Below the pieces are notes generated by a model. That model did not search any database. It was not told the origin of the DNA and saw nothing but the letters and a program-made list of their open reading frames with translations. A stretch of DNA of 64,000 nucleotides from a virus (Duplodnaviria; Caudoviricetes), in IMG/VR virus record IMGVR_UViG_3300008262_000001; one strand, 5' to 3'. A program made the position numbers and the translations under genes. Of the stretch, positions 601-39,632 are shown in pieces. Position 1 is the first letter of the stretch. Each line of letters starts with the position of its first letter.

Positions 601-846
601 TTACAGAAACCAATCGTTATTCCAATAACCACCAAAAAGAGAAATTCTTACATCATCGCCAAACGCATACCAAGTTTGTTTGATTTTTACCTTTTCCATC
701 CAACGAATTTCTCTTTTATCCCATTTTTTACAAACGATTGGAAACCACGCAAATTTCACAATTTCTCGTTCTTCTAAATGTTCCTGTTTAATTTTACACT
801 TCATAATAAACGTTTTATAACAAGGTATATGTGAAATAAACATCAA
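601..846 (-). CDS. Hypothetical protein (start may be the internal MKCKIK)
   Basis: 81-aa ORF co-oriented with its neighbours. Confidence 0.55.
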   Translation of the reverse strand: MMFISHIPCYKTFIMKCKIKQEHLEEREIVKFAWFPIVCKKWDKREIRWMEKVKIKQTWYAFGDDVRISLFGGYWNNDWFL

Positions 847-947
847 CCGCTGTTTGTTTACTCATTGTATTTGTTTTTATGAATATGATAGAAATTTTAT
901 TGTTCCTGATGGGGTTGGTTCCGAAATAAGACCAAAAGTAGCTCAAA

Positions 948-1592
948 TCAATCTTCGATATGATGATCCTGAGGTAAAACCAAATTTAGAATAGACCTTT
1001 TTTCCATCAAGTTAAGGATGCTATTTAAAGATATGGGCTTTAATCCATTACCATCGACACCAACGTCCATAGATTTTCCAGGCGATATCCTTTTATTAGG
1101 TGGCAAATGTGTATGACCATGCAAGTGGATTATACCTTCATTCATTCCATCCCAACTGGCAATAGGAAAGTGCATACAAATTATACGAATTTTATCGATC
1201 AGTTTGCCATTTGGAATTCGGAGATCAAGTTTTAGATAGGATTGAACTGAAGAAAATAATTCCTGTATGTCGCCCTTGTTTCTTTCTATGTGATGGTCAT
1301 GATTACCAAGCACCAGGTGAATGTTTTTACATACTATTCTATTTCTAAATTCTGCAATTTTTTCGAATCCCCCGAAACTCCAATCCCCTAAATGTACGAG
1401 ATGATCGTTTTCACCTACTAAGGAATTTATATTATTAACTAAGGCTGAATTCATTTGATCTAAAGAACCAAAATCCCTAGTTAATGTGAGTGAATTTCCC
1501 CACTTGGTTGTTGCTCTGCAAATGTTAGCATGTGAGTAATGGGTGTCGCTTGTAAACCAAACTTTTTGGCCGTTTTCTAATGTGAGTTTCAT
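948..1592 (-). CDS. Calcineurin-like metallophosphoesterase
   Basis: Motifs FTSDTHYSH, HLGD, LGNHD, HFP, HGHTH. Confidence 0.92.
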   Translation of the reverse strand: MKLTLENGQKVWFTSDTHYSHANICRATTKWGNSLTLTRDFGSLDQMNSALVNNINSLVGENDHLVHLGDWSFGGFEKIAEFRNRIVCKNIHLVLGNHDHHIERNKGDIQELFSSVQSYLKLDLRIPNGKLIDKIRIICMHFPIASWDGMNEGIIHLHGHTHLPPNKRISPGKSMDVGVDGNGLKPISLNSILNLMEKRSILNLVLPQDHHIED

Positions 1593-1653
1593 TGAATAAT
1601 TGATATTGGAGAGTTCCTTACCTAAAACTAGGAGTTACTCACAATACATTTTG

Positions 1654-1774
1654 TAGCCAGGACAGGATTCGAACCTGTATGGACACATCTCTTTCCTAAG
1701 TTTCCCCGCTAAGGGATTTGTGAACGAAGCGAGTTCCGCACAACTTTAGCGTCTACCAATTCCGCCACCTGACT
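1654..1774 (-). tRNA. Atypical 121-nt class II tRNA-like RNA; anticodon not assignable
   Basis: Acceptor stem AGTCAGG/CCTGGCT; Leu/Ser/Tyr-type D arm GGCGGAATTGGTAGACGC; perfect T arm ACAGG-TTCGAAT-CCTGT; 70 nt between D and T arms; ends in ACAA with no encoded CCA. Confidence 0.7.
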
Positions 1775-1782
1775 AAAAGTTT

Positions 1783-2124
1783 TTAAAGGGATTTAAAAAC
1801 AGAGAAGACTTCTGAAATAGGAGTTCCGTTATTGAAAACGTGCATTGTATCCCCTGTCATAGTTCTTGCTCTTAGCTCTATACTAATAGTTGAGTGATTG
1901 TAATACATCGCGTATCTATTAGTAAGAGTGTTAAACCAAAGGATATTTCCCATTCCACCATCCTTTGTTTCCTTAACATCGATGTCTCCTTCAGATTTCC
2001 AAATAACGGCACCCATGAGAGCGAGGGCAATTTCTTGGACTCCTTGTGCATGGTGATCAGCACGTTCTAAAACACCATTAAAATACTCCTTAAGCAAATC
2101 TGCTGTTTCAACTTTAACTGCCAT
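1783..2124 (-). CDS. Integron cassette protein VCH_CASS14-like
   Basis: Resembles, from memory, V. cholerae Cass14: RADHHA..V.EIALAL.GA..W, NxLW, RYA.xYNH...IE.R, H.F.N.TP.S...xFKxL. Confidence 0.75.
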   Translation of the reverse strand: MAVKVETADLLKEYFNGVLERADHHAQGVQEIALALMGAVIWKSEGDIDVKETKDGGMGNILWFNTLTNRYAMYYNHSTISIELRARTMTGDTMHVFNNGTPISEVFSVFKSL

Positions 2125-2258
2125 AAAAATAGATTTTAAGATTAATATGGGTAAAAGTAACGAATTCCTCTCAAGGAAAAAAATGTTTTTGGATTTTTCC
2201 AGAAAATTTTTAAGTTTATCGATTGTTCTAATTGACCATAGTTACTGATATATACATC

Positions 2259-2693
2259 ATGCTATTTGCAGATGCTAAAGATATTAAGAGAGCTAATGAT
2301 TTAGGAAAACACTCCGGGGTTGTCAACTTGAGCCCGTTAGAAATAGCCAGAGGCAAAGCTTCTTCGATGGCTACAGCAATAACTGATAAGAGAAAGATCC
2401 TAGGAAGACTGGAAGCAGTTGCCTCAGTGTGGAACGATTTCTATGTTCTGATACCATTCATTGATCGTTGTGTTGATCTTTGGCCAGGTTCCCAATACGA
2501 AGAAGCCTATAAACTTGCTCACAATCTGAGAAGATACTTGAAGAATGACTTTAATTCTATTGGAATTTCTAACAAGATCATTAAAGATAGAAATTTTTTA
2601 AAAAACAGTTCTGGAATCGTCTTAACTGGGCACTCCTATGAGTTTGATGAGTTAGCAAGAACTATATTCAATACATTAATGAGATATAACTAA
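2259..2693 (+). CDS. Hypothetical protein (start probably ATG 2259)
   Basis: GATATATA motif at 2247-2254 lies just upstream of ATG 2259. Confidence 0.65.
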   Translation: MLFADAKDIKRANDLGKHSGVVNLSPLEIARGKASSMATAITDKRKILGRLEAVASVWNDFYVLIPFIDRCVDLWPGSQYEEAYKLAHNLRRYLKNDFNSIGISNKIIKDRNFLKNSSGIVLTGHSYEFDELARTIFNTLMRYN

Positions 2694-2704
2694 GGGTATT
2701 ACAA

Positions 2705-3097
2705 ATGCTTAAGAAGGGTGAAATAAAAAACTTAGGACCTCTCAGCATAGTAATGCCTGATTCTAAAAGTTATAAAACTGGAGACGATACACTTCATTTA
2801 TTAATGCTCAATGGAATGACATTTAAAGAAGCCTTCGAAAATGCGAAATATAATTATCCAGGATGGAGACTTCCAACCATTAATGAATGCAATTATATCA
2901 ATTCATTGAACTACATAGGACCAGGAGGAAAGGGTATTGTAGAATTGCCTTTCAATTTCTACTGGACCTCTGAAGACTACTCTTCGGCTTTAGCTTTTGT
3001 TTACAAACCAAATTATTTGGCAGGAGTAGGGAGGTTTTCACAGATGCTTAAAGAAGAAAAAGTTAAAGTTTTGTACGTCAAAGATTCCCTCATTTAA
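2705..3097 (+). CDS. DUF1566/Lcl-like protein
   Basis: GWRLPTINE and YWTS motifs; paralog of 4596..4910. Confidence 0.55.
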   Translation: MLKKGEIKNLGPLSIVMPDSKSYKTGDDTLHLLMLNGMTFKEAFENAKYNYPGWRLPTINECNYINSLNYIGPGGKGIVELPFNFYWTSEDYSSALAFVYKPNYLAGVGRFSQMLKEEKVKVLYVKDSLI

Positions 3098-3122
3098 CCA
3101 GAAATATATAAAAATAAAAACT

Positions 3123-3722
3123 ATGAGCTACACTAGAGAACAAATTGAAGCTGCAATTAAGAGCAAAGGTTATGCTTGGTTTGAAGGAGAGAAAGACTAT
3201 GATGTGAATATTGTAGGTATTAGAAACTCCTCAACAGGACAAAAAGTAACAAACGTTTTTGATGATGTTCTAACCATTTCTTACAAAGTAAATGGAGAAT
3301 GGAAATTTCATTCTTGGCCAGCCACAACAGATCCAGGTAAAAAAGGCGTTTTAGAATATCACAACTCAGCAGGGGTAGCTAGATTAGTTGAAGGACAATA
3401 TCGTGGATCTCATGCAATTGGTCTTCACCAAGGAAGATATGAAGCTCTTAAGCAAGCTAAAGCTGTTAAAGTCTACAGAGACGCTGATCGTGATCTTGAA
3501 TATGACGAGCAAAGAACTCAAGAGGGCGTATTTGGTATTAATATACACAAAGCAGGGGCAGATTCAACTTATGTTGAAAATTGGTCAGAAGGGTGTCAAG
3601 TTTTTAAGAAGTCAGCAGATTTTGATGCCTTCATGGAAATTTGTAGAAAAGCCAAAGATATTCATGGTAATTCTTTCACTTACACTCTTATTGAATCCTC
3701 AGATTTAGCACCAAAAGCTTAA
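3123..3722 (+). CDS. Putative peptidoglycan hydrolase/endolysin with a YkuD (L,D-transpeptidase)-like catalytic motif
   Basis: NIVGIRN, TTDPG, GINIHKAG...NWSEGCQV (His...S-x-G-C). Confidence 0.65.
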   Translation: MSYTREQIEAAIKSKGYAWFEGEKDYDVNIVGIRNSSTGQKVTNVFDDVLTISYKVNGEWKFHSWPATTDPGKKGVLEYHNSAGVARLVEGQYRGSHAIGLHQGRYEALKQAKAVKVYRDADRDLEYDEQRTQEGVFGINIHKAGADSTYVENWSEGCQVFKKSADFDAFMEICRKAKDIHGNSFTYTLIESSDLAPKA

Positions 3723-3777
3723 TTTCCAATTTCGATCGAAACAATTGTTATTGAAGTCAATTCAATGATAAAAGGGA

Positions 3778-4587
3778 ATGAAGTCGAGATTCAAAATAGA
3801 TTCAATTAGAACGCAAAGGGAAGTGTTGGGTGTAAGAGCACCTTCACGAATCGAGGAGAGAAGATATCTTCTTTTTCCTAAGGATAATGCAGTAACCAGA
3901 TCACTCTACAATAATGAACTTTATGAGCCTTGGCTTTATAACTTTATCTACCTCAACAACATTGATATCAAGTCTACTGAGATCATAGATATTGGAGCAA
4001 ATAATGGACAGATCTCAGTTGAGTTTGGTAATTTAGTTGGTGATAAGGGCAAGGTTCATTCATTCGAACCCCAAAGGATTATTTACTATCAATTGTGTGG
4101 TAATGTCTTTTTCAATGGGTTAGACAACGTTTTTTGTTACAATATGGCTCTTGGAAATACTGAAGGCTATATTGATATCGAAGCACCAGATTACCACTCA
4201 AAAGACTGGGTCAATTTCGGAGATGTTCATGTTGGACTTGGATTTGAAAAATCAGACCGGGTAGAGATTAAAAAGCTAGACAGTTTCACTTTTGAAAATG
4301 TTAGCGTCATAAAAATAGATGTTCAAGGCTTTGAACTTGAAGTGATTGAAGGTGCTGAACAAACTATTAACAAACATCGTCCTGTCATATTTATTGAGAT
4401 AGAAGAAGACCAATTGGGAAAATATGGAAAAACCTCTGATGATGTTATCACAAAATTAGAGTCTCTAGGTTATAGTGTTAGAAGATTCTTAGAGGATCTT
4501 CCTTTTTTTACAGTGTCAGGAAAATGTCTTGATTTTTTTGCAGTGCCTTCTGAAAAATACGATATAAGCTCCATGAAAGACAGATAA
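3778..4587 (+). CDS. FkbM family SAM-dependent methyltransferase
   Basis: IDIGANNG, SFEPQ, IKIDVQGFELEVIEGA, RPVIFIE. Confidence 0.9.
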   Translation: MKSRFKIDSIRTQREVLGVRAPSRIEERRYLLFPKDNAVTRSLYNNELYEPWLYNFIYLNNIDIKSTEIIDIGANNGQISVEFGNLVGDKGKVHSFEPQRIIYYQLCGNVFFNGLDNVFCYNMALGNTEGYIDIEAPDYHSKDWVNFGDVHVGLGFEKSDRVEIKKLDSFTFENVSVIKIDVQGFELEVIEGAEQTINKHRPVIFIEIEEDQLGKYGKTSDDVITKLESLGYSVRRFLEDLPFFTVSGKCLDFFAVPSEKYDISSMKDR

Positions 4588-4595
4588 ATACCTAT

Positions 4596-4910
4596 ATGAA
4601 CTATAGGATTAGCGGTTTTGGAATAGAGATAATGAATAAGGACATTGCCAAGTGTAATTTCGAAGATGCTAAAGAAATAATTGGGGAAATTGGAGAAGGG
4701 TGGAGACTTCCTAAAGCTGAAGAATGCTTTGCAATTTTTTCACTCAAGCAATTAGAATGTGGCAATTTTCATGATTCATTTTATTGGATATCCGATCCAG
4801 TAATGACCAATGATCCTCGGATGAGACACATCTTCAGACCTGACAAGTTTTTTGTTGCAACAAGGAGCAAAAATGATCTTTATTATGTTCGTCCGGTAAG
4901 GGATATATAA
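4596..4910 (+). CDS. DUF1566/Lcl-like protein
   Basis: GWRLPKAEE, YWIS, C-terminal VRPVR. Confidence 0.55.
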   Translation: MNYRISGFGIEIMNKDIAKCNFEDAKEIIGEIGEGWRLPKAEECFAIFSLKQLECGNFHDSFYWISDPVMTNDPRMRHIFRPDKFFVATRSKNDLYYVRPVRDI

Positions 4911-4956
4911 ACAAAGCCAAGGCTACGGATGAAACATCCATGACATTTATAAAAAC

Positions 4957-7416
4957 ATGATACAAAATTATCCTTTTTTTGCGAATCTTTTAGAACTAAG
5001 AAAGGAGCAGTTCGAAAGAAATACTGCTCATATGAATCTTTCTAAAGAGGAAAAAGATAGAAGATGGAGGGTTTTTGAGCAACAGCAAGCTGCAGAAATG
5101 GCGATGGCTATGCACGCTATGAATGGACAATCAAACTTTTCTGCTTTCGAATCAACTTGGAAAACTGACAATACTGTTTCAGCATCTGGATACTTGTATT
5201 CTGGCTCATCAACATCCACACAAGTTAATAGGCCTAGAGCTAGTATATCACCAAATGTAAGTGGAGCAACCGGAAGCACATCACTGACTTTTGCAAGTCC
5301 ACCAACTACCAGCTCTGGGTCTGAAGCTCTGTTTGTGGGTGCATACATTTTTGGAGGTGGCCTTACAGGAGGAACAAAAATTTCAAATATTTCAGGGAAT
5401 ACAATTACCCTTACCCTTCCAACTAGTCGTGTTACAACCAATGCTCAACTCTTCGTTAGCTTAACAACTCTTCCTAATCAAATTAGGTTGCCTTTAGTTT
5501 CAAATGGGAGTTATAATTTTTATGTAGATTGGGGTGATGGAAATGTAGATTTAATAACAAGATGGGACCAGCCAGAAGTTTTGCACACATACTCCACTGC
5601 TGGAACATATAATGTTAAAATACTTGGAAACATTACTGGCTGGAATTTTGCTTTTAATACGGATGCCAATAAAATCATAAAAATAAATAAGTGGGGTTGT
5701 TTAAGGTTTGTAGACCCCTCAAGCAGTATAAGTTCGGGCTTCTTCTGCGGATGCAATGCCCTAGATTTAACCGAAGTATCTGATCTTCCTTATCTTAGAA
5801 ACCTCTCCAGTTTAAAAAATATGTTTGCCTATTTTTGGGCAGAAAGAAGTCAGGGTACATCACCCCCAAGAATTAATAGGCTAAATGAATGGGATGTTTC
5901 CTTTATCCAAGATTTTTCTGGTATGTTCCAACAAAATCAATACTTCAACCAAAATATAGGAGATTGGGACGTATCGAATGCTACAAATATGAGTGCAATG
6001 TTTGCTTCTTACCAGTCAGTAGGAGGAGGGTTGCAACCGGGGATTTTTGATAATGGTGGGAGTGATTCAATTGGTAATTGGAAAGTAGGTAAAGTGACAA
6101 GCATGGCAAATATGTTTCTTTTTCAAGGAAGTTTTAATAGAGCGATAGGAAATTGGGACGTAAGCAATGTAAGGACCTTTTATAGATTTATGAAAGGACC
6201 AGATTTAGGTGCTAATGCCGGTGGTGGAATATTTAACAAGCCTTTGAATTGGAATCCACGAAGTGCAGTCACAATGGAAGAAATGTTCTACTACCAACGA
6301 TCATTTAACCAAGATATTGGAGGATGGGACGTGGGCAAAGTTCAAAATTTCAACTCATTTCTTGCAATTCCGTTTCTGACTGGTACAAATAATGGAGCAT
6401 TTAATAACGGAGGTGCAGACACTCTAAAATATTGGAATACATCCAGTGCTACTACCATGAACAAGATGTTTCAAAAACAACCCCAATTTAATCAAAATAT
6501 TGGAACATGGAATGTCAGTAATGTTACAGACATGAGGGAGATGTTTTATAGTATAGATAGTACAGCTGTTGTTTTGGGGAATTTTAACAACGGAGGATCA
6601 GATTCTATTAAAAATTGGGATGTGTCAAAGGTTACTACATTTAATACAACTTTCTATAATCAACCAAACTTTAATCAACCAATTGGTCAATGGAGACCTT
6701 CGGCATGTAGGATTCTTGATTACATGTTTGGAAACCAAAATATAGGTCAAGGTTTCAATCAAAATATAAATGGATGGGGCGCATACACAGGAGCAGTTCA
6801 ATCCATGGTAGGAATGTTTTATAGGAATAGTTCCTATAATCAGCCGATGGACCAATGGAACACTTCTAATGTCACTACTATGGAAAAAATATTCAATGAT
6901 GCCAATGCATTTAACCAGAACATTGGGTCATGGAACGTAGTTAATGTTATAAGAATGGATTCAATGTTTGAAAGAACAACCGCAGGAGCTGGAGGATTCA
7001 ATAATGGAGGAAGTAGTGATATTAACAATTGGAATATGGTTAACGTTAAAAGAGTAACAAAGATGTTCAAAAATCAAACCTCGTTTAATCAACCTCTTGG
7101 AAACTGGAACATAGCAACTCTTGGAGCAGGATTTACTTATACCGCGCCTTCTGGTTCATACGGAACCTCTGGGACTGTTACTTTGGCTAACAATAGAGAT
7201 CAAGCTTTCCAAGAATTCATGGCAGGAAAAACATTCAACGATTACTCAACCGCAAATTATGATGCAACTCTAATTGGTTGGGCTTCTAGAGCATCTCAAA
7301 CAGCAATAAAAGTAAATTTTGGGACAATAAGGTACACAGCATCAGCAACAACAGCACACGAGACTACTTTGAGAATTGGGCGTGGATGGAGCTTTACTGA
7401 TGGAGGGCAGATATAA
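4957..7416 (+). CDS. DUF285/BspA-like surface-repeat protein with a PKD-like domain; candidate virion fibre/receptor-binding protein
   Basis: Many FNQxIGxWxVSxVTxMxxMF repeats; VDWGDG...HTYSTAGTY. Confidence 0.85.
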   Translation: MIQNYPFFANLLELRKEQFERNTAHMNLSKEEKDRRWRVFEQQQAAEMAMAMHAMNGQSNFSAFESTWKTDNTVSASGYLYSGSSTSTQVNRPRASISPNVSGATGSTSLTFASPPTTSSGSEALFVGAYIFGGGLTGGTKISNISGNTITLTLPTSRVTTNAQLFVSLTTLPNQIRLPLVSNGSYNFYVDWGDGNVDLITRWDQPEVLHTYSTAGTYNVKILGNITGWNFAFNTDANKIIKINKWGCLRFVDPSSSISSGFFCGCNALDLTEVSDLPYLRNLSSLKNMFAYFWAERSQGTSPPRINRLNEWDVSFIQDFSGMFQQNQYFNQNIGDWDVSNATNMSAMFASYQSVGGGLQPGIFDNGGSDSIGNWKVGKVTSMANMFLFQGSFNRAIGNWDVSNVRTFYRFMKGPDLGANAGGGIFNKPLNWNPRSAVTMEEMFYYQRSFNQDIGGWDVGKVQNFNSFLAIPFLTGTNNGAFNNGGADTLKYWNTSSATTMNKMFQKQPQFNQNIGTWNVSNVTDMREMFYSIDSTAVVLGNFNNGGSDSIKNWDVSKVTTFNTTFYNQPNFNQPIGQWRPSACRILDYMFGNQNIGQGFNQNINGWGAYTGAVQSMVGMFYRNSSYNQPMDQWNTSNVTTMEKIFNDANAFNQNIGSWNVVNVIRMDSMFERTTAGAGGFNNGGSSDINNWNMVNVKRVTKMFKNQTSFNQPLGNWNIATLGAGFTYTAPSGSYGTSGTVTLANNRDQAFQEFMAGKTFNDYSTANYDATLIGWASRASQTAIKVNFGTIRYTASATTAHETTLRIGRGWSFTDGGQI

Positions 7417-9598: not shown

Positions 9599-11434
9599 AT
9601 GCAAGACTATAAATTTTTCGCAAACATATTAGAACTAAGAAGGGAGCAGTTTGAAAGAAATACTGCTCATATGAATCTTTCAAAAGAGGAGAAGGATAGA
9701 AGGTGGAGAATTTTTGAACAACAACAAGCTGCAGAAATGGCAGCGGCTATGAACCATTTATCGGGTACACATGTGTTTGCACCGTTTGTTTCTAATTGGC
9801 TTACAACTGCAACTTCTGCCGGATCTTCAAATTCCAATCAGGTAAGACTTCCATTGGTATCAAATGGCACTTACAGATTTTTCGTAGACTGGGGAGATGG
9901 ATTTATTAACAGTATTTCATCTTGGAACCAAGCGGAAGTCACTCACACATATTCCACTACTGGAAATTATACCATTACAATCTATGGAATCTGTATTGGT
10001 TGGGCTTTTAATAACACGGGTGACAAATTAAAGATTCGAAATATCACAAGATGGGGTTGCTTGAGATTCGTAAATCCAGGAACAGATATCAATAGTGGGT
10101 TCTTCAATGGTTGCTCTCAGATGAATCTCTCCACTGTCCAAGATGCTCCTTCTTTTTATAATCTCAGTAGCATTCGTAACATGTTTAGAGGGTGTACAAA
10201 CGCATCATTTTCTATAAATAATATCAATTCCTGGGATTTAACTAATATTGCTGATGCGAGTGGTTTATTTTACAATTGCCCGTCTTTTAATCAGGATGTT
10301 GGAAGTTGGAATACAGCCAACATAACGAATATGTCAAACATGTTCAATGGTGGTGGTGTAACTTCTGTCTTTAACAATGGAGGAAGTCCTGCAATTGGGT
10401 CATGGAACACTTCAAAAGTTGCAGATTTTTCAGGAATGTTTGGGGAACAATCAAGTTTTAATCAAAATATCGGAAACTGGAACGTGGGTTCTGCTACTTC
10501 CATGAATAGTATGTTTATGTGCTCAGTAGTTGATGGGATTTTTAATAATGGAGCAAATCCATCTATTGGGGGTTGGAACACATCAAACGTCACAAATATG
10601 TCAAGGTTGTTTGCAGGACAACCTGCGTTTAATCAACCAATTGGATCTTGGAACACCTCGAAAGTGACCGATATGTCATATTTGTTTTATTCATATAATC
10701 TTCCTACAAATAGTAGACTGAAAAATTCTTTCAACCAACCTATCGCAAACTGGGACACTTCCAAGGTTACAAATATGGAATACATGTTTGCTTCCTGTAA
10801 TTTCAATCAACCAATTGGATCTTGGAATACATCATCATTAACCAATTTAACATATACTTTTGCTTATACTAATTTTTTCAATCAAAGCATAAATTCATGG
10901 GATACGTCAAAGGTAACGACTCTATTTGCAACTTTTATTTATGCAGATGCTTTCAATCTACCCTTGTCTGGATGGAACACATCAAATGTTACAACTATGG
11001 CGTCAACTTTCTACAAGGCACGTTTCAACCAGCCAATCGGAAATTGGGACACATCTAAAGTAACAACCTTTAGTAATTGTTTCAGAGATGCACTTGCATT
11101 TAATCAGGATATTTCAAATTGGAGTCTTGCGAGTTGTAACGGACTAGGAGGAATGTTTAGGAATGCTAAAGGGTTCGATAGGAGCTTAGCTGCATGGAAT
11201 CTTGCTCCGGTACTTACAAGAAATTTAGGAGCACTTGCACTGTTTATGGCTCAAAGACCTCCAGCCCAGTACTCAACTGCGAATTACAATGCTTTATTAA
11301 TATCTTTAGCTGCACAACCAGTCCCAAACAATTGTACACTAGACATGGGAACAATAAAATATACCAGTGCAGCTACTACTGCTAGAAATTCGCTACTTGC
11401 GAAGGGATGGACAATTTTAGATGGTGGAATTTAA
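9599..11434 (+). CDS. DUF285/BspA-like surface-repeat protein, paralog of 4957..7416
   Basis: FNQPIGSWNTSKVT repeats; near-identical ~50-aa N-terminus. Confidence 0.85.
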   Translation: MQDYKFFANILELRREQFERNTAHMNLSKEEKDRRWRIFEQQQAAEMAAAMNHLSGTHVFAPFVSNWLTTATSAGSSNSNQVRLPLVSNGTYRFFVDWGDGFINSISSWNQAEVTHTYSTTGNYTITIYGICIGWAFNNTGDKLKIRNITRWGCLRFVNPGTDINSGFFNGCSQMNLSTVQDAPSFYNLSSIRNMFRGCTNASFSINNINSWDLTNIADASGLFYNCPSFNQDVGSWNTANITNMSNMFNGGGVTSVFNNGGSPAIGSWNTSKVADFSGMFGEQSSFNQNIGNWNVGSATSMNSMFMCSVVDGIFNNGANPSIGGWNTSNVTNMSRLFAGQPAFNQPIGSWNTSKVTDMSYLFYSYNLPTNSRLKNSFNQPIANWDTSKVTNMEYMFASCNFNQPIGSWNTSSLTNLTYTFAYTNFFNQSINSWDTSKVTTLFATFIYADAFNLPLSGWNTSNVTTMASTFYKARFNQPIGNWDTSKVTTFSNCFRDALAFNQDISNWSLASCNGLGGMFRNAKGFDRSLAAWNLAPVLTRNLGALALFMAQRPPAQYSTANYNALLISLAAQPVPNNCTLDMGTIKYTSAATTARNSLLAKGWTILDGGI

Positions 11435-19172: not shown

Positions 19173-20237
19173 TTAAGAGTTTCGATCCCACCAAGGTTTC
19201 TGGTAAACTGGTTTGATGTTTTTCCAAATTATTTTGGAATAATCTTTCCCGTCGATCATAGCAAATATCAAGGATCTATTCAAAGAAGTTTCTAGGTTTA
19301 AAATATCTGCTATTTCCTTCCTGGATAATTCTTTGTCCTTAATCCTCTTATCCATAATTTCAATAGCTCTATCCTCTCTGACTTGATATTGAATTTTCAA
19401 ATCCCGAATGGTATTTCTAACCCACTTATCAAATTCGTCAGGAACCTTTTCAAGCATCAAGTTTAAATCCTTACCTAAAGACAAAGACTCCCAGATATCA
19501 ACATTTGAAAAATTGGTTATGAGTTTATGAAGTCTAACATATTCTTCCCCTTTGATTTTGATTCTATCACCATTGGAAAATCTAATCACAAAACCTTCCT
19601 CATTATCTTTGATTATGCTTTTAAGTGATTGGTAATCTTTAACTCCATCAAATTTCTTGACAACTTTAAATCCGATGTTGTGAATCAAATTTTTAAGTCT
19701 TATATCTTTCTCTGGATCATGTAAATCAACTTCATAACCAGTTTGTGTATGAACCATTCCTAACATGACCAAATTTTCAAAGTCATATTCTACAACTATC
19801 CTATTTTCTTTGTATATAATTTCAAAAAGATAAGTGTAGTCTTTATGAAGCTTTTCATAATCGTATGCTTTTAATAAATCGGAAGCCTTAAGAGATTGGG
19901 TAGAAGTAAAAGATCCCCTAGATGCCAAAATCCATTGTCCCTCATAATGGAATAAAATTCCTAAAGAACCATCAAGTTTCTCATAAACATCAAAATCATC
20001 AGTGGGTGTAAATCTTGCTTCCTCTAGGTTAAAAAACTTGGGAAAAGTTCGGGCAAGTAAATTTCCTGACTGGTCTAAAACTGTTCCCCTCATGTTTAAG
20101 GTGATATGATCCCAATTTTCAGAAAACTGACATTCTCTAGAATAATTATAAATAGCTATAGGAAATAGAGGATGATCGTTTTTTTCTAACAGACCATCAT
20201 CAACGTACTTTTGAATTAAGTCAATATCATAGGTCAT
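19173..20237 (-). CDS. T4 Rnl1-like RNA ligase (start probably ATG 20237)
   Basis: FPKFFN, motif I YEKLDGSLG, FEIIY, EEGFVI, KIKGEEY. Confidence 0.88.
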   Translation of the reverse strand: MTYDIDLIQKYVDDGLLEKNDHPLFPIAIYNYSRECQFSENWDHITLNMRGTVLDQSGNLLARTFPKFFNLEEARFTPTDDFDVYEKLDGSLGILFHYEGQWILASRGSFTSTQSLKASDLLKAYDYEKLHKDYTYLFEIIYKENRIVVEYDFENLVMLGMVHTQTGYEVDLHDPEKDIRLKNLIHNIGFKVVKKFDGVKDYQSLKSIIKDNEEGFVIRFSNGDRIKIKGEEYVRLHKLITNFSNVDIWESLSLGKDLNLMLEKVPDEFDKWVRNTIRDLKIQYQVREDRAIEIMDKRIKDKELSRKEIADILNLETSLNRSLIFAMIDGKDYSKIIWKNIKPVYQKPWWDRNS

Positions 20238-20465
20238 GGCTAAGTAATTTGTCTTATAATGCAAGAATAACAGAAAAATCCCAAATAAAAAAATCCAGCC
20301 AAAAAAGCTGGATTTTTCTTTATATAGAGAAGCTGAATTAGTGATTTCACTCACTAATTTGCTGAGGATATTGAATATACTGCTCAATAAAGAAAAATTT
20401 CACACATTCGTGAAAATTTCTCGGAGTTCGCGAGAATAATGAATATATAAAGAAAAACCTTCTAG

Positions 20466-23394: not shown

Positions 23395-23417
23395 AAAAAA
23401 AGCCCGTAAGGGCTTTT
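23395..23417. terminator. Intrinsic terminator directly after the tmRNA CCA end
   Basis: AAAAAAAGCCCGTAAGGGCTTTT. Confidence 0.8.
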
Positions 23418-23857
23418 GGTGGATCCGGGGGGATTCGAACCCCCATCTTGCTCAACAAGTTAATTGCGCTCTTTCACAGGCTTAGTCAATTTTTCTAAAT
23501 GGACAAAATAGCTATCAATTTTTGGAAGGAAGATAACAATCCTTGGTTTTTGCATTTATTTGTCCACTTAATGCTCAGTGGCATTTACTCTTCGGTATGA
23601 GCCGAATTTCATGAGGTTGTAACTTTTTTTAAATCCAGGCAGTTACCGCCTGTCGCTTAAGCTGCTAATAGCAACTCAGCTTCTTCCATTACTGGCACAG
23701 TGTAACCTTTGCGAGAAAGAGAAGTTGGGATACTCATGATATCCTCTACATTGTAAACGTTGCCGTTTGAGGTTTGATAGGTAATTAAAGTGTTTCCATC
23801 TAACACTGCCTGCATCACATCAAAGAACTCTATTGCCAATCAATTCCGATCGGACCC
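23417..23857 (-). ncRNA. ssrA: tmRNA (transfer-messenger RNA), 441 nt
   Basis: 5' GGGTCCG pairs with 3' CGGATCC-A-CCA including a G3:U wobble; T arm GGGGG-TTCGAAT-CCCCC; PK1-like AGTGTT/AACACT stem with GATGG/CTATC; internal frame ending LLLAA-TAA. Confidence 0.93.
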
Positions 23858-23930: not shown

Positions 23931-24248
23931 ATGGAAGGATTTAAAATAAACACAAAAACAACAGGATTTGGATCTCCAGCAAGAGCATATGTTGACAAGA
24001 GATTAGATACAAATGATCTCTTAATAAAAGATCCCTATTGCACATTCTTTTTCCTTTGGGAAGGTGAAGAAAAATTTGGAATAAAAAAAGGAGATCATCT
24101 CATTGTTGATCGTTCCATTTATCCAAATCAAGATGACCTTGTTCTTTCAACAGAAGAAGGAAAAATAACAGTAGCATTCTACAGACAAATAGATCCAAAA
24201 AATTTATGGGGTACAATCACATGGAAATTAAATCAGATAAAAAAATAG
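23931..24248 (+). CDS. umuD: UmuD-like protein, short and lacking the S24 catalytic residues
   Basis: GFGSPA...LDTNDLLI...GI..GD.LIVDRS; directly upstream of umuC. Confidence 0.75.
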   Translation: MEGFKINTKTTGFGSPARAYVDKRLDTNDLLIKDPYCTFFFLWEGEEKFGIKKGDHLIVDRSIYPNQDDLVLSTEEGKITVAFYRQIDPKNLWGTITWKLNQIKK

Positions 24249-25411
24249 CCATATTAGATTGCAACAACTTCTATGTGAGCTGTGAAAGAATTTTTAATCC
24301 AGAAATTCTAACAACACCAACTGTAGTGCTTTCCAATAATGACGGATGCGTTATAGCAAGAAGTCAAGAGGTTAAAAAAATTGGTGTTGGAAAAGGAAGT
24401 CCTTATTTTCAAATAGATGACTCGTTAAAAGAAAGCATCAGAAAATTTTCTTCCAACTATTCTTTATATGGGGACATCTCAGATCGCATAAACAATATCT
24501 TGAAAAGATTTTGTAAAGACGTAGAAATCTATTCTATTGACGAGTGTTTCTTAGACGTAAGCCACCTAAGTGAAAAAGATCTAGTGCCTTACCTAACTTT
24601 AATGAGAGAAGAAATTCAAAGGTTAGTTGGAATTCCAGTTTCAATTGGGGTAGCTCCAAATAAAACACTTTCCAAAATAATGAATGGCTTTGCTAAAAAA
24701 AGAACAGAGCTAAATGGTGTGTGTTCATATTGGGACATTCAAAGCATAGATGATATGCACATAAGCGAAGTGTGGGGTATAGGTGATAGGTCTTCAGAAA
24801 AATTGAATTCCCTATCTGTAAATACAATAGGGGATTTTAAAAAATTACAGCCTTTCCATGTTAGAAAATTAATGACAGTGGTTGGCTTAAGAACATGGCT
24901 TGAGCTTCATGAAAACCTAGTCCACCCAATCCAAACAAAGTTTAAAAAACCAAAGGTTGTCTCATCATCTAGAAGCTTCGGAAAATCCGTTTGGCAAAAA
25001 GAACAAGTCCAAGATTCAATATGGACATTTCTCGAGGACTCAATCAAAAAATTAAAGTCAGAAGGGTTAAAGGGTAACACTGTAGTAATCTACGCAACCA
25101 CAAATAGGTTCAAGGATAATTTCTTTGTTTGGTCAAAAAAGATATTCCTAATGAATCCATCGAATAACATCCAAGATGTATGGGATGAATTACAAGAACA
25201 TATGGAAAATCTTCCTCTAAAGCCTTGGGAAAAAGCAGGAGTTATTTTTACAGATCTGGTTCCAGAGAATGTTATATCACCTAGAATATTCCAGGACGAT
25301 ATCCAAAGAAAAAATAGACCAAGCGTAACAAATCAAGAGTGGATGACAAGAAGAGAATTTCTCTCTCCCAAATGGACTACTGACTGGAATGATATCCCAA
25401 AGATAAATTAA
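24206..25411 (+). CDS. umuC: Y-family DNA polymerase, UmuC/Pol V-like
   Basis: LDCNNFYVSCE, VLSNNDGCVIARS, YSIDECFLD, SSRSFG, DUF4113-like tail LSPKWTT. Confidence 0.93.
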   Translation: MGYNHMEIKSDKKIAILDCNNFYVSCERIFNPEILTTPTVVLSNNDGCVIARSQEVKKIGVGKGSPYFQIDDSLKESIRKFSSNYSLYGDISDRINNILKRFCKDVEIYSIDECFLDVSHLSEKDLVPYLTLMREEIQRLVGIPVSIGVAPNKTLSKIMNGFAKKRTELNGVCSYWDIQSIDDMHISEVWGIGDRSSEKLNSLSVNTIGDFKKLQPFHVRKLMTVVGLRTWLELHENLVHPIQTKFKKPKVVSSSRSFGKSVWQKEQVQDSIWTFLEDSIKKLKSEGLKGNTVVIYATTNRFKDNFFVWSKKIFLMNPSNNIQDVWDELQEHMENLPLKPWEKAGVIFTDLVPENVISPRIFQDDIQRKNRPSVTNQEWMTRREFLSPKWTTDWNDIPKIN

Positions 25412-38277: not shown

Positions 38278-38604
38278 CTATTTGCTTTTCTTAATAATCA
38301 GGGATAAAAACGCAGCTAAAAAAGAAACAAGACCTGATCCGATGAATGAATATAATATTGGGTCTAATGATAATTGAAAATTATGCAAGGAGATTCTGGG
38401 ACTAAGTTCCTGTAATCCAGGCAATGCAAAATATAAAATCATAGATGTCCAAAAAGAAAAGCATTGGTAGCAATCCAAAAGATATCCAAAAAACTCGGAT
38501 TTAATTGTGACCCAATCTCTGAAATTTTGAAGGATTTTAGAAGCAACAACTATGTGAGTAAAACCCCAAACACTAAGTAGATAAAAAAAGAAAATGGATG
38601 TCAT
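38278..38604 (-). CDS. DUF1360-like membrane protein
   Basis: TM segments with CYQCFSFW. Confidence 0.65.
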
Positions 38605-39632
38605 TGGAATATTTCGTTGTCTTTAAGTTCTAGTAAAAATTGTTTTTGCTCTTCAGTTAAGTTTTCAGGGATTTTCACATTAAGTTCAATCAAGAAATCT
38701 CCAATATTTCCAAATCCCATATTTGGGATTCCCTTTTGACTGAATCTAAGTACTGTTCCAGGAATTGTTCCAGGATCAACTACTGCCTTTAACTTTTCCC
38801 CGTTAGGCATTTCAACATCAATATTAGTTCCCAATGAAGCGTCAATAAAGCTGATGGTTCTTGAACTAATTAAATCTATTCCTCTACGAACAAAAGAATG
38901 GTCTTGAATCTCCTTCACTTTAATAAAAAGATCCCCGTTTCTTCCATTACCTTTACACTCGTTACCTTTACCTTCAACTACAAATTGCATCCCATCAGAA
39001 GCACCTGCAGGAATTTTTATGTCAACAATATCTTCAGTATCCTTTAGTCCAGACCCAAAGCACGTGTGGCAATTTTCTAAAACTACCCTTCCCGATCCTG
39101 AGCACGATGGACATGTTTGAACTGAATTTACCTGAACAAAACCATTAGTCTTATTAATGGTAATGAATCCAGATCCTGAGCATTGACCACAAGATATAAA
39201 AGAGGTAGAGTCATAAGCCCCAGTTCCTTGACAAGGTGAACATTTTTTACTTCTTTTTATTTTGATTTTCTTTTCAATTCCATTGAGGATTTCATTTAAT
39301 CCTATTTGAAGATTGATATTAAGAGAAGTTCCTTTTGTAAAATTCTGAGGGTTACCTCCAAATGGACCACTAGTAAATGGATTTCCCCAGTTGAATCCAT
39401 TGAACATATCCTGCAATGGATTTCCACCTTTTCTTGAAAAGTCGTACCTTTTTCTTCTCTCAGGGTCACTTAGATTCTCGTATGCTTCAGATATCTTTTT
39501 GAAATTCTCCTCAGCACCCTGTTCCTTGTTTCTATCTGGGTGGAATTTTTTAGCTAAATCTCGGTAAGCTTTTTTGATTTGATCATTGTCAGCTGTTTCA
39601 GGAACTCCTAATATTTGATAATAATCACTCAT
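38601..39632 (-). CDS. dnaJ: DnaJ chaperone
   Basis: J domain with HPD, four CxxCxGxG repeats, C-terminal domain. Confidence 0.96.

Follow-up and report, generated by a model that had tools for sequence, protein, structure and literature searches.

The window analysed here, a stretch of phage DNA of 64,000 nt, carries on its minus strand (positions 1654-1774) a 121-nt RNA gene that is read from 1774 to 1654, so that RNA position i corresponds to window position 1775-i. The gene, its parts and its two neighbours are as follows.

1783..2124, minus strand: upstream gene with a VCH_CASS14 domain, ending in a stop codon 8 nt short of the RNA 5' end
1654..1774, minus strand: whole tRNA-Leu-like chassis RNA gene, recognized from its two constant ends, both unique in the window, and from its membership of a family
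1768..1774, minus strand: acceptor stem 5' strand AGUCAGG (RNA 1-7), with U at -1; pairs with 1655-1661
1749..1767, minus strand: U8, G9 and the Leu-type D arm GCGGAAUUGGUAGACGC (RNA 8-26; the D arm is 10-26)
1718..1743, minus strand: insert hairpin 1 (RNA 32-57), with outer UUGU/ACAA, a GCG bulge, inner GAAC/GUUC and loop UCGCUUC, from the frame-constrained minimum-energy fold
1703..1716, minus strand: insert hairpin 2 (RNA 59-72), UCCC(U)/(G)GGGA with loop UUAGCG, from the fold
1698..1746, minus strand: doubtful closing stem AAGUU (RNA 29-33)/AACUU (RNA 73-77), its letters being present
1681..1696, minus strand: small arm GGA/UCC with a 10-nt loop (RNA 79-94) in the variable-arm position; A81-U92 is replaced by U-A, a compensatory change, in the homologue H270
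1679..1680, minus strand: A95 and U96, the latter equivalent to U48, the partner of A15
1662..1678, minus strand: T arm ACAGG-UUCGAAU-CCUGU (RNA 97-113)
1654..1661, minus strand: acceptor 3' strand CCUGGCU and discriminator A73 (RNA 114-121; A73 is position 121)
948..1592, minus strand: downstream gene for a calcineurin-like phosphoesterase, 61 nt after the RNA

The RNA possesses the 7-bp acceptor stem of a canonical tRNA (RNA 1-7/114-120, AGUCAGG/CCUGGCU, with U3·G70 among the seven pairs), a D arm with G18G19 and a T arm with a UUCRANY loop. In sequence, its D arm, GCGGAAUUGGUAGACGC, corresponds to that of E. coli tRNA-Leu(CAG). The 5' and 3' constant ends each occur once in the 64 kb of the window, where 0 chance matches are expected.

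Between the D arm and the T arm lies a centre of 70 nt, in which we found no 5-bp anticodon stem closing a 7-nt loop with U33 and R37. Across the whole window, ARAGORN with default settings called no tRNA, only a tmRNA, and so did Rfam at gathering score. When the RNA itself was compared with the Rfam tRNA model (RF00005), it obtained 19 bits, over its 3' part only and below the gathering cut-off of 29 bits. Folding of the whole molecule was no better than that of shuffled sequences (z = -0.17), a measure that is uninformative for tRNA-like RNAs. The original prediction, made from the sequence of the window, had described intact acceptor, D and T arms, a missing U33-anticodon-R37 loop and a gene that encodes no CCA. 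The letters and the pairing on the minus strand bear out the first point and the ARAGORN and Rfam results the second; the third is correct as well, because CAAAA comes directly after A73.

The family and its tRNA-like frame

The window RNA is one copy of a huge family, found in uncultivated freshwater phages, in which a fixed tRNA-like frame holds variable inserts. The frame reads AGUCAGG-UG-Leu-like D arm … ACAGGUUCGAAUCCUGUCCUGRCUA, and the window RNA matches both of its ends exactly. A scan of IMG/VR with the 23-nt 3' end retrieved at least 120 stretches, many of them with 2-6 matches; upstream of each match stood the same 5' end (AGUCAGGUGGCGGAAU…), and the centres were unrelated from copy to copy. 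Overall, hundreds of contigs from uncultivated phages were found to contain the frame; a record has 1-11 copies, and the total element length ranges from 54 to 191 nt or more. Among the matches listed, at least 185 unique elements gave 152 insert clusters after pooling of loci; these counts come from scans keyed on the frame and are lower bounds. The full repertoire of the family appears to comprise thousands of different inserts.

Five whole records contained 1, 4, 4, 8 and 11 copies; all copies of a record share one strand, and most of them lie in clusters. Usually the copies are situated inside tRNA arrays, where they alternate with canonical tRNA genes and a few ORFs and have the orientation of the true tRNAs. 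The window copy shares this placement in or at the phage tRNA array, as it adjoins, on the same strand, the phosphoesterase gene that in relatives directly follows the array; in the window, the array position holds only the element. On the minus strand between the two flanking genes we found no promoter-like or terminator-like site; the promoter scan was one for sigma-70 and may not apply if the host belongs to the Bacteroidota.

In an alignment of the locus with contigs from four lake metagenomes, the summed depths of the frame ends were 4,331-36,332 and 608-6,771, with ~0-14 in the flanking bins and 0-11 in the insert bin. The depth of the frame in metagenomes is several hundred to about a thousand times that of the window phage, and dozens of lake contigs join both frame ends across different letters. 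The window element itself was covered without a differing letter by one contig per run in three runs from three studies (2017, 2019 and 2024). A fourth lake run (2018) was without the insert of the window phage.

In 185,579 species genomes, the 3' constant end occurred 17 times, and all 17 occurrences were frame elements in contigs of metagenome bins, nine bins being Bacteroidota. Among cultured phages, blastn against 50,697 phage records returned generic tRNA-end similarities only, and no record with both ends. Literature searches by topic and by frame sequence found no description of the family; a survey of structured RNAs in IMG/VR does mention "tRNA-like" candidates (PMC10690425). The metagenome bins, together with a promoter motif, indicate that the hosts are probably Bacteroidota. 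The motif, a Bacteroidota-type TAnnTTTG box, is situated exactly at -12 in 9 of 183 copies (about 5%), suggesting stand-alone transcription of these copies.

Across about 150 unrelated inserts, conservation of the individual acceptor and T-arm positions amounts to 94-100%, a figure that is unbiased only for the 5' half, the 3' end having served as the search key. U is found at -1 in 83% of copies, U8 is conserved across the family, and the 148 cluster representatives have U48 in 125 cases and A73 in 144. A73 is followed by a C and by A-rich sequence, and in this the copies resemble the canonical tRNAs of their phages, which have N73-C and an A-rich continuation but no CCA. Conservation ends exactly at the tRNA boundaries. 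A D arm is always present, of strict Leu type in 56 of the 148 representatives, Leu-like in 51 and of other kinds in 41. Extra hairpins are tolerated within the D loop, and insertions in general only at sites that spare the elbow, namely the D-loop alpha region and the anticodon/variable region.

Where the acceptor diverges, double changes compensate. An example is AGUCUUG/CAGGACU in phage L211, whose three copies share the 3' acceptor strand CAGGACU, each with a compensated 5' strand; a general sharing of frame variants within genomes was not detected (permutation p = 0.37). Short members of the family include ordinary tRNAs on the same acceptor and T arm, i.e., tRNA-Lys(UUU) and tRNA-Ile(UAU), and many members reach 35-48 bits on the Rfam tRNA model over their full length, the insert being treated as an insertion.

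The window copy contains all the identity elements of an E. coli-type LeuRS listed in PMC9976931 (A73, A14, A15-U48, G18G19, A20a and the D/T-loop pairs). Its leucylation seems plausible, because this set is complete and because charging persists in tRNA-Leu variants that have lost the anticodon and variable arms (PMC9976931). Leucylation cannot be a family-wide function, since the D arms vary and only about 38% are strictly of the Leu type.

Fold, constraint and exchange of the inserts

Among the matches listed, the only true homologue of the window insert is H270 (five contigs, up to ~270 kb), and a pattern search anchored on both insert loops gave, among the matches listed, nothing beyond it. 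The two RNAs differ in 12 alignment columns. Two pairs of the window insert changed in a compensatory manner, U33-A56 to G-C and A81-U92 to U-A, the latter converting the GGA/UCC arm into GGU/ACC. Furthermore, G31·A58 of the window RNA became G-C, A49-U65 became G·U and U3·G70 became U-A.

These data bear on the structure first proposed for the centre. The two hairpins described there (GAAC/GUUC and UCCC/GGGA, with loops UCGCUUC and UUAGCG) are present and letter-identical in H270; being identical, hairpin 2 provides no covariation evidence either way. The predicted GGA/UCC arm is also there, and its replacement by GGU/ACC speaks for it. As for the AAGUU/AACUU stem, its letters exist as stated, but its proposed part as the closure of the insert is not borne out: three of the five pairs are kept in H270, where forcing the stem costs 11.4 kcal/mol (-28.0 vs -39.4), and in the window RNA the resulting fold is 1.8 kcal/mol worse than an alternative in which U32/U33 lengthen hairpin 1 (UUGU[GCG]GAAC…GUUCACAA). 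Two pairs speak for this extended hairpin, one of them compensatory (U33-A56 to G-C) and the other gained. We therefore favour, as the better supported of the two, a predicted fold in which the long bulged hairpin 1, hairpin 2 and the small arm sit directly on the tRNA core. In the positional orthologue group (the L083 type), a closing stem does covary and holds two hairpins inside, which bears against regarding the window fold as settled; the internal wiring of the window RNA is provisional, because just two sequences, the window and H270, define it.

Could the centre conceal an intron? With its intron option (-i), ARAGORN reported the window RNA as tRNA-Arg(gcg) with G32 and a 32-nt intron at 37/38, and the window contains a gene for an Rnl1-type ligase (19173-20387), so that a tRNA-Arg(GCG), or some other decoding tRNA, spliced via the Rnl1-like RNA ligase of the phage could be imagined. 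However, among 151 family members intron-mode calls were obtained for 110 real sequences and for 95-103 after shuffling of the centres (in plain mode, 34 real vs 24-34 shuffled); given a perfect tRNA frame, ARAGORN is nearly always able to find some solution. The homologues received unrelated anticodons (Tyr, Met, Cys), the proposed anticodon stem is not kept in H270, and an Arg anticodon with G32 would sit on a Leu-type body. Moreover, we know of no splicing endonuclease for such sites in bacteria.

We consequently treat the tRNA-Arg(GCG) call as an artefact and a spliced decoding tRNA as highly improbable. The intron search suggested with the original prediction thus yielded a call that neither rises above the shuffled rate nor keeps its anticodon in homologues, and the intron-containing tRNA listed among its options is left without support. 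Another option, a decoy for anticodon nucleases, fares no better, as an anticodon-loop mimic is neither present nor conserved. The remaining option, a synthetase/EF-Tu mimic, is conceivable; all published identity elements for an E. coli-type LeuRS are retained in the frame. Its more general statement that the RNA is not a decoding tRNA as encoded agrees with the absent anticodon loop and the chance-like intron calls.

The inserts are constrained at the level of structure, both within clusters and in the pair formed by the window and H270. In seven clusters with at least three sequences, the insert alignments fold better than column-shuffled controls, with a mean z of -2.6 (individual values -4.3, -1.35, -2.2, -3.65, -0.83, -2.5 and -3.2). 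RNAalifold identified, in three clusters, 4-6 pairs with compensatory changes each, frame and insert taken together.

This constraint is relevant to the idea that the element is a decayed tRNA-Leu pseudogene, which might be entertained because the window has no canonical tRNA and the element occupies the site of the tRNA array of relatives. Homologues lacking covariation in the insert were the outcome that the original prediction had named as speaking against itself and for decay. That objection fails, because the window insert does covary with the insert of H270. In addition, the ends are perfectly conserved around a divergent centre, a pattern that decay never produces, and the element recurs letter for letter in the three metagenome runs mentioned above. 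The observations already contradict a pseudogene, and we consider it extremely unlikely.

As to what the inserts might recognize, k-mer enrichment in 148 insert representatives revealed no common motif, only leakage of D-arm letters. Rfam, at gathering score or at E ≤ 1, placed no family other than tRNA over any insert. Within the window, the longest complement of the window insert measured 11 nt, a length that 78% of shuffled sequences equal. With no Rfam match, common motif or significant antisense target, the action of the insert is a guess. T-arm-like hairpins occur inside 4 of 149 inserts, against 0.4 expected; they are real but rare, and hence not a feature of the family.

Phages exchange inserts, or entire elements, in the manner of cassettes. 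This follows from two kinds of comparison. In the syntenic relative L083, the protein of the upstream gene is 82% identical in amino acids to that of the window and the frame is the same, with an unalignable insert; L084 and L085 have yet other inserts at this syntenic site. Conversely, H270 carries the insert type of the window between flanks unrelated to those of the window.

Such traffic, with different inserts at one site and one insert in unrelated contexts, would also be expected of a selfish or recombination-driven DNA cassette, whose constant ends would act as homology handles and which would have no function as RNA. Assemblies do break at the element, in keeping with this idea. On the other hand, conservation stops exactly where the tRNA does, pairing is maintained by compensatory changes in frame and insert alike, and no target-site duplications or mobility genes were seen. 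We consider a pure DNA cassette very unlikely.

Comparison with known RNAs

The closest described relatives of the element appear to be rnaC of phage T4 and RNA1 and rna2 of phage T5. In all of them, as in the window RNA, paired ends and a T arm enclose a long non-tRNA centre. T4 species 1 RNA (rnaC) and rnaD are, like the element, small stable RNA genes located among phage tRNA genes and on the same strand; their function is still unknown in print (PMC9697503). In rnaC, which measures 139 nt, the non-tRNA centre is long and the T arm, CCGGGUUCGAAUCCCGG, is perfect; after this arm comes an acceptor-like 3' strand, part of which pairs with the 5' end. It differs from the element in having no sequence relation to the frame and no evident Leu-type D arm. 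Furthermore, T4 has one copy each of rnaC and rnaD, and no interchangeable inserts on a fixed frame.

T5 RNA1 surrounds a long insert with a Leu-type D arm, GCCGGAAUUGGUAGACGG, and a T arm, whereas rna2 combines paired 5' and 3' acceptor strands with a T arm, GCAGGUUCGAAUCCUGUC, that is nearly that of the family; rna2 also has an internal T-arm-like hairpin. Both are annotated as misc_RNAs of the T5 tRNA region, in a record that gives no function. Unlike the element, they have other acceptor stems and are single genes of a coliphage, for which no shared frame with hundreds of inserts has been described. Judged from these comparisons, the likeness to the T4 and T5 RNAs is one of design only, without apparent sequence homology beyond a generic T arm.

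From class II tRNA-Leu (RF00005), the element has the acceptor, the 3-bp D stem with a long AAUUGGUAGA loop, U48, the T arm and A73, and it resembles the canonical tRNA-Leu genes of these phages, which are near-identical to it in the D arm and share its CCA-less 3' context. What sets the element apart is the lack of a 5-bp anticodon stem with a 7-nt loop, reflected in a score of 19 vs 29 bits. The acceptor AGUCAGG is found in none of the listed canonical class II tRNAs (Leu, Ser, Tyr) of these phages.

Like the element, tmRNA has 5' and 3' ends that form an acceptor/T domain, with a non-tRNA body between them. The element, however, has no tag reading frame and no pseudoknots, contains U3·G70 rather than G3·U70 and possesses a full D arm, and neither ARAGORN nor Rfam called a tmRNA at its position. 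The window phage encodes a true tmRNA as well, with a different acceptor, an encoded CCA and no frame letters in common with the element.

Gammaherpesvirus tRNA-miRNA chimeras follow the principle of a tRNA body that carries a foreign structured RNA in place of, or after, the anticodon arm. The same principle underlies the engineered "tRNA scaffold" of E. coli, in which the tRNA body confers processing and nuclease resistance on a foreign structured RNA (PMC3753655, PMC3401473). The scaffold is man-made and the chimeras belong to eukaryotic viruses, unlike the natural phage family described here; our literature searches found no natural tRNA-scaffold system of comparable scale in bacterial viruses. 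Finally, the bacterial and phage Y RNA YrlA is also a non-coding RNA with a tRNA-like module (PMC4201824). In YrlA, however, the tRNA-like part lies within the molecule and the ends make up the Ro-binding stem, whereas the ends of the element form the acceptor stem; matches to YrlA were at chance level only (24-26 bits vs 69) and lay outside the elements.

Possible role of the element

The interpretation we prefer, with some confidence, is that of a non-decoding RNA derived from tRNA-Leu, which would be processed like a tRNA and whose insert would be the working part. In such a scheme, the gene would be transcribed together with its neighbours, RNase P would cleave at U-1/A+1, and the 3' end would be trimmed and supplied with CCA, as for the true CCA-less tRNAs of the phage. 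The product would be a stable L-shaped RNA. Its frame would serve processing and stability, possibly leucylation, and its insert (the long bulged hairpin, the second hairpin and the 3-bp arm) would most likely bind a macromolecule of the host or of the phage.

The near-perfect nucleotide conservation of the acceptor and T stems exceeds what processing alone needs, a point against this interpretation.

The main rival, which we regard as unlikely, gives the entire function to the frame: the copies would act jointly as mimics or competitors for a factor that reads the acceptor, T arm and elbow, candidates being LeuRS, EF-Tu, RNase P, the CCA enzyme and a tRNA-sensing or tRNA-cutting defence of the host. 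In that case, the centre would be a tolerated spacer, kept different so that the repeats do not recombine. Conservation of the acceptor and T arm over so many unrelated inserts, far beyond the needs of folding, argues for this idea, as do the confinement of insertions to places where the elbow stays intact and the full LeuRS identity set of the window copy. The compensated acceptor variant common to the three copies of L211 also looks as if it tracked one partner. Yet conserved structure and compensatory changes in the inserts are not expected of a pure spacer; the window phage has a single copy in its 64 kb, and frame variants are not generally shared within genomes, as the permutation value given above indicates.

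Quite improbable, in our view, is a role in RNA punctuation, in which the fold would mainly be a cleavage signal for RNase P and the 3'-end enzymes, separating and stabilising the neighbouring mRNAs. tRNAs play such a part in mitochondrial transcripts. The setting is suitable, in that 8 nt separate the element from the upstream stop codon and 61 nt from the gene that follows on its strand, with no promoter-like or terminator-like site on the minus strand between both genes, and other family members are placed between ORFs in arrays. However, punctuation leaves unexplained the diverse and constrained inserts, the conserved D arm and elbow and A73, and the TAnnTTTG box of some copies suggests that they are transcribed on their own.

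A more far-reaching version of our preferred reading, the insert as working part, is a tentative possibility. The elements might be modular RNA cassettes, each consisting of a standard, possibly leucylatable frame and one of thousands of aptamer-like modules that phages swap through recombination at the constant ends. The tRNA-processing enzymes of the host, and perhaps a single dedicated partner, would read the frame, and the modules would bind or disarm variable host factors, e.g., defence proteins.

Regardless of the precise role, the element is of a kind already known, because T4 rnaC and T5 RNA1 and rna2 show the same design; what is new is one fixed frame with an enormous repertoire of exchangeable inserts. 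The "stable RNAs" of phage tRNA clusters, represented by T4 rnaC and rnaD and by T5 RNA1 and rna2, have been known since the 1970s, and the freshwater phages have scaled up their design. In practical terms, gene finders miss the elements of this family or label them as tRNAs with random anticodons or introns, which corrupts phage tRNA counts. If the inserts are effectors, the family would constitute a large class of phage RNAs, so far unexplored, with regulatory or anti-host roles, and a natural precedent for the engineered tRNA scaffold. Should the modular cassettes prove real, they would parallel, at the level of RNA, the anti-defence gene islands that evolve fast, and would at last provide a role for the 50-year-old "stable RNAs" of T4 and T5.

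RNA-related and neighbouring genes of the window phage

Besides the frame RNA, the 121-nt tRNA-Leu-like RNA that lacks an anticodon loop, we could recognize in the window a tmRNA and an RNA ligase, together with several other protein genes.

Selected genes of the window phage (window coordinates)
4957-7416, plus strand: large DUF285-repeat protein (288 bits)
9599-11434, plus strand: large DUF285-repeat protein (331 bits)
19173-20387, minus strand: T4 Rnl1-type RNA ligase (Pfam RNA_lig_T4_1; phrog_562)
23417-23857, minus strand: tmRNA (58.8 bits; tag EEAELLLAA*)
24206-25411, plus strand: Y-family (ImpB/UmuC-type) DNA polymerase
30257-31240, minus strand: ORF with a weak N-terminal Intein_splicing match, below the Pfam cut-off
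33870-35189, minus strand: ORF with a weak N-terminal Intein_splicing match, below the Pfam cut-off
38601-39632, minus strand: full-length DnaJ homologue

The tmRNA gene encodes the terminal CCA, and its acceptor bears no relation to that of the frame RNA. Among the scanned neighbours of the ligase gene, no polynucleotide kinase was recognized. One of the two ORFs with Intein_splicing matches is a topoisomerase II A-subunit homologue, and the pair may represent split or intein-bearing replication genes. The two DUF285-repeat genes have small Lcl_C-like ORFs and an FkbM methyltransferase gene at their flanks.

Within the phosphoesterase gene, which lies downstream of the frame RNA, metagenome depth was raised about 10-fold over window positions 1282-1363, a short stretch that also contains a common C>A variant (position 1311). 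It is probably a conserved motif that related phages share with this one.

RNA elements in related phage contigs

Scans of contigs from other phages carrying the frame returned further RNA elements.

RNA elements in related contigs
L093 7609-7837, minus strand: group I intron (97.8 bits)
L093 7832-8193, minus strand: tmRNA call (49.2 bits)
L100 4124-4186, plus strand: hit to 'freshwater-1', an Rfam RNA motif (70.1 bits vs a cut-off of 72)
L125 13031-13101, minus strand: ordinary-looking tRNA-Lys(UUU) (66 bits, Rfam tRNA)
L152 4958-5030, plus strand: ordinary-looking tRNA-Ile(UAU)

The intron and the tmRNA call of L093 directly abut or overlap, and this contig may hold a tmRNA gene with an intron. 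The 'freshwater-1' match sits within a phage tRNA array, adjoining frame RNAs.

Frame variants and promoter box

Both ordinary-looking tRNAs are built on the family AGUCAGG acceptor and T arm, with one letter altered in the 3' acceptor strand of the tRNA-Ile, meaning that the frame is not confined to anticodon-less RNAs. The frame itself also varies. Some members (L208 at 396-543, L212, L215, L107, L135 and L081) have a D-loop hairpin, additional to the central insert, between GGAAU and GGUAGAC. In another contig, L211, all three copies (e.g., 662-772 and 1053-1173) share CAGGACU as an alternative 3' acceptor strand; the 5' strands that pair with it, AGUCCUG, AGUCUUG and AGUCCUA, are compensated. 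The shared variant hints either at gene conversion or at recognition of the acceptor stem by a partner.

In the upstream flanks, TAnnTTTG, a Bacteroidota-type -7 promoter box, begins exactly at -12 in 9 of 183 family copies. This placement suggests that the hosts are Bacteroidota and that some copies would be transcribed as stand-alone units.
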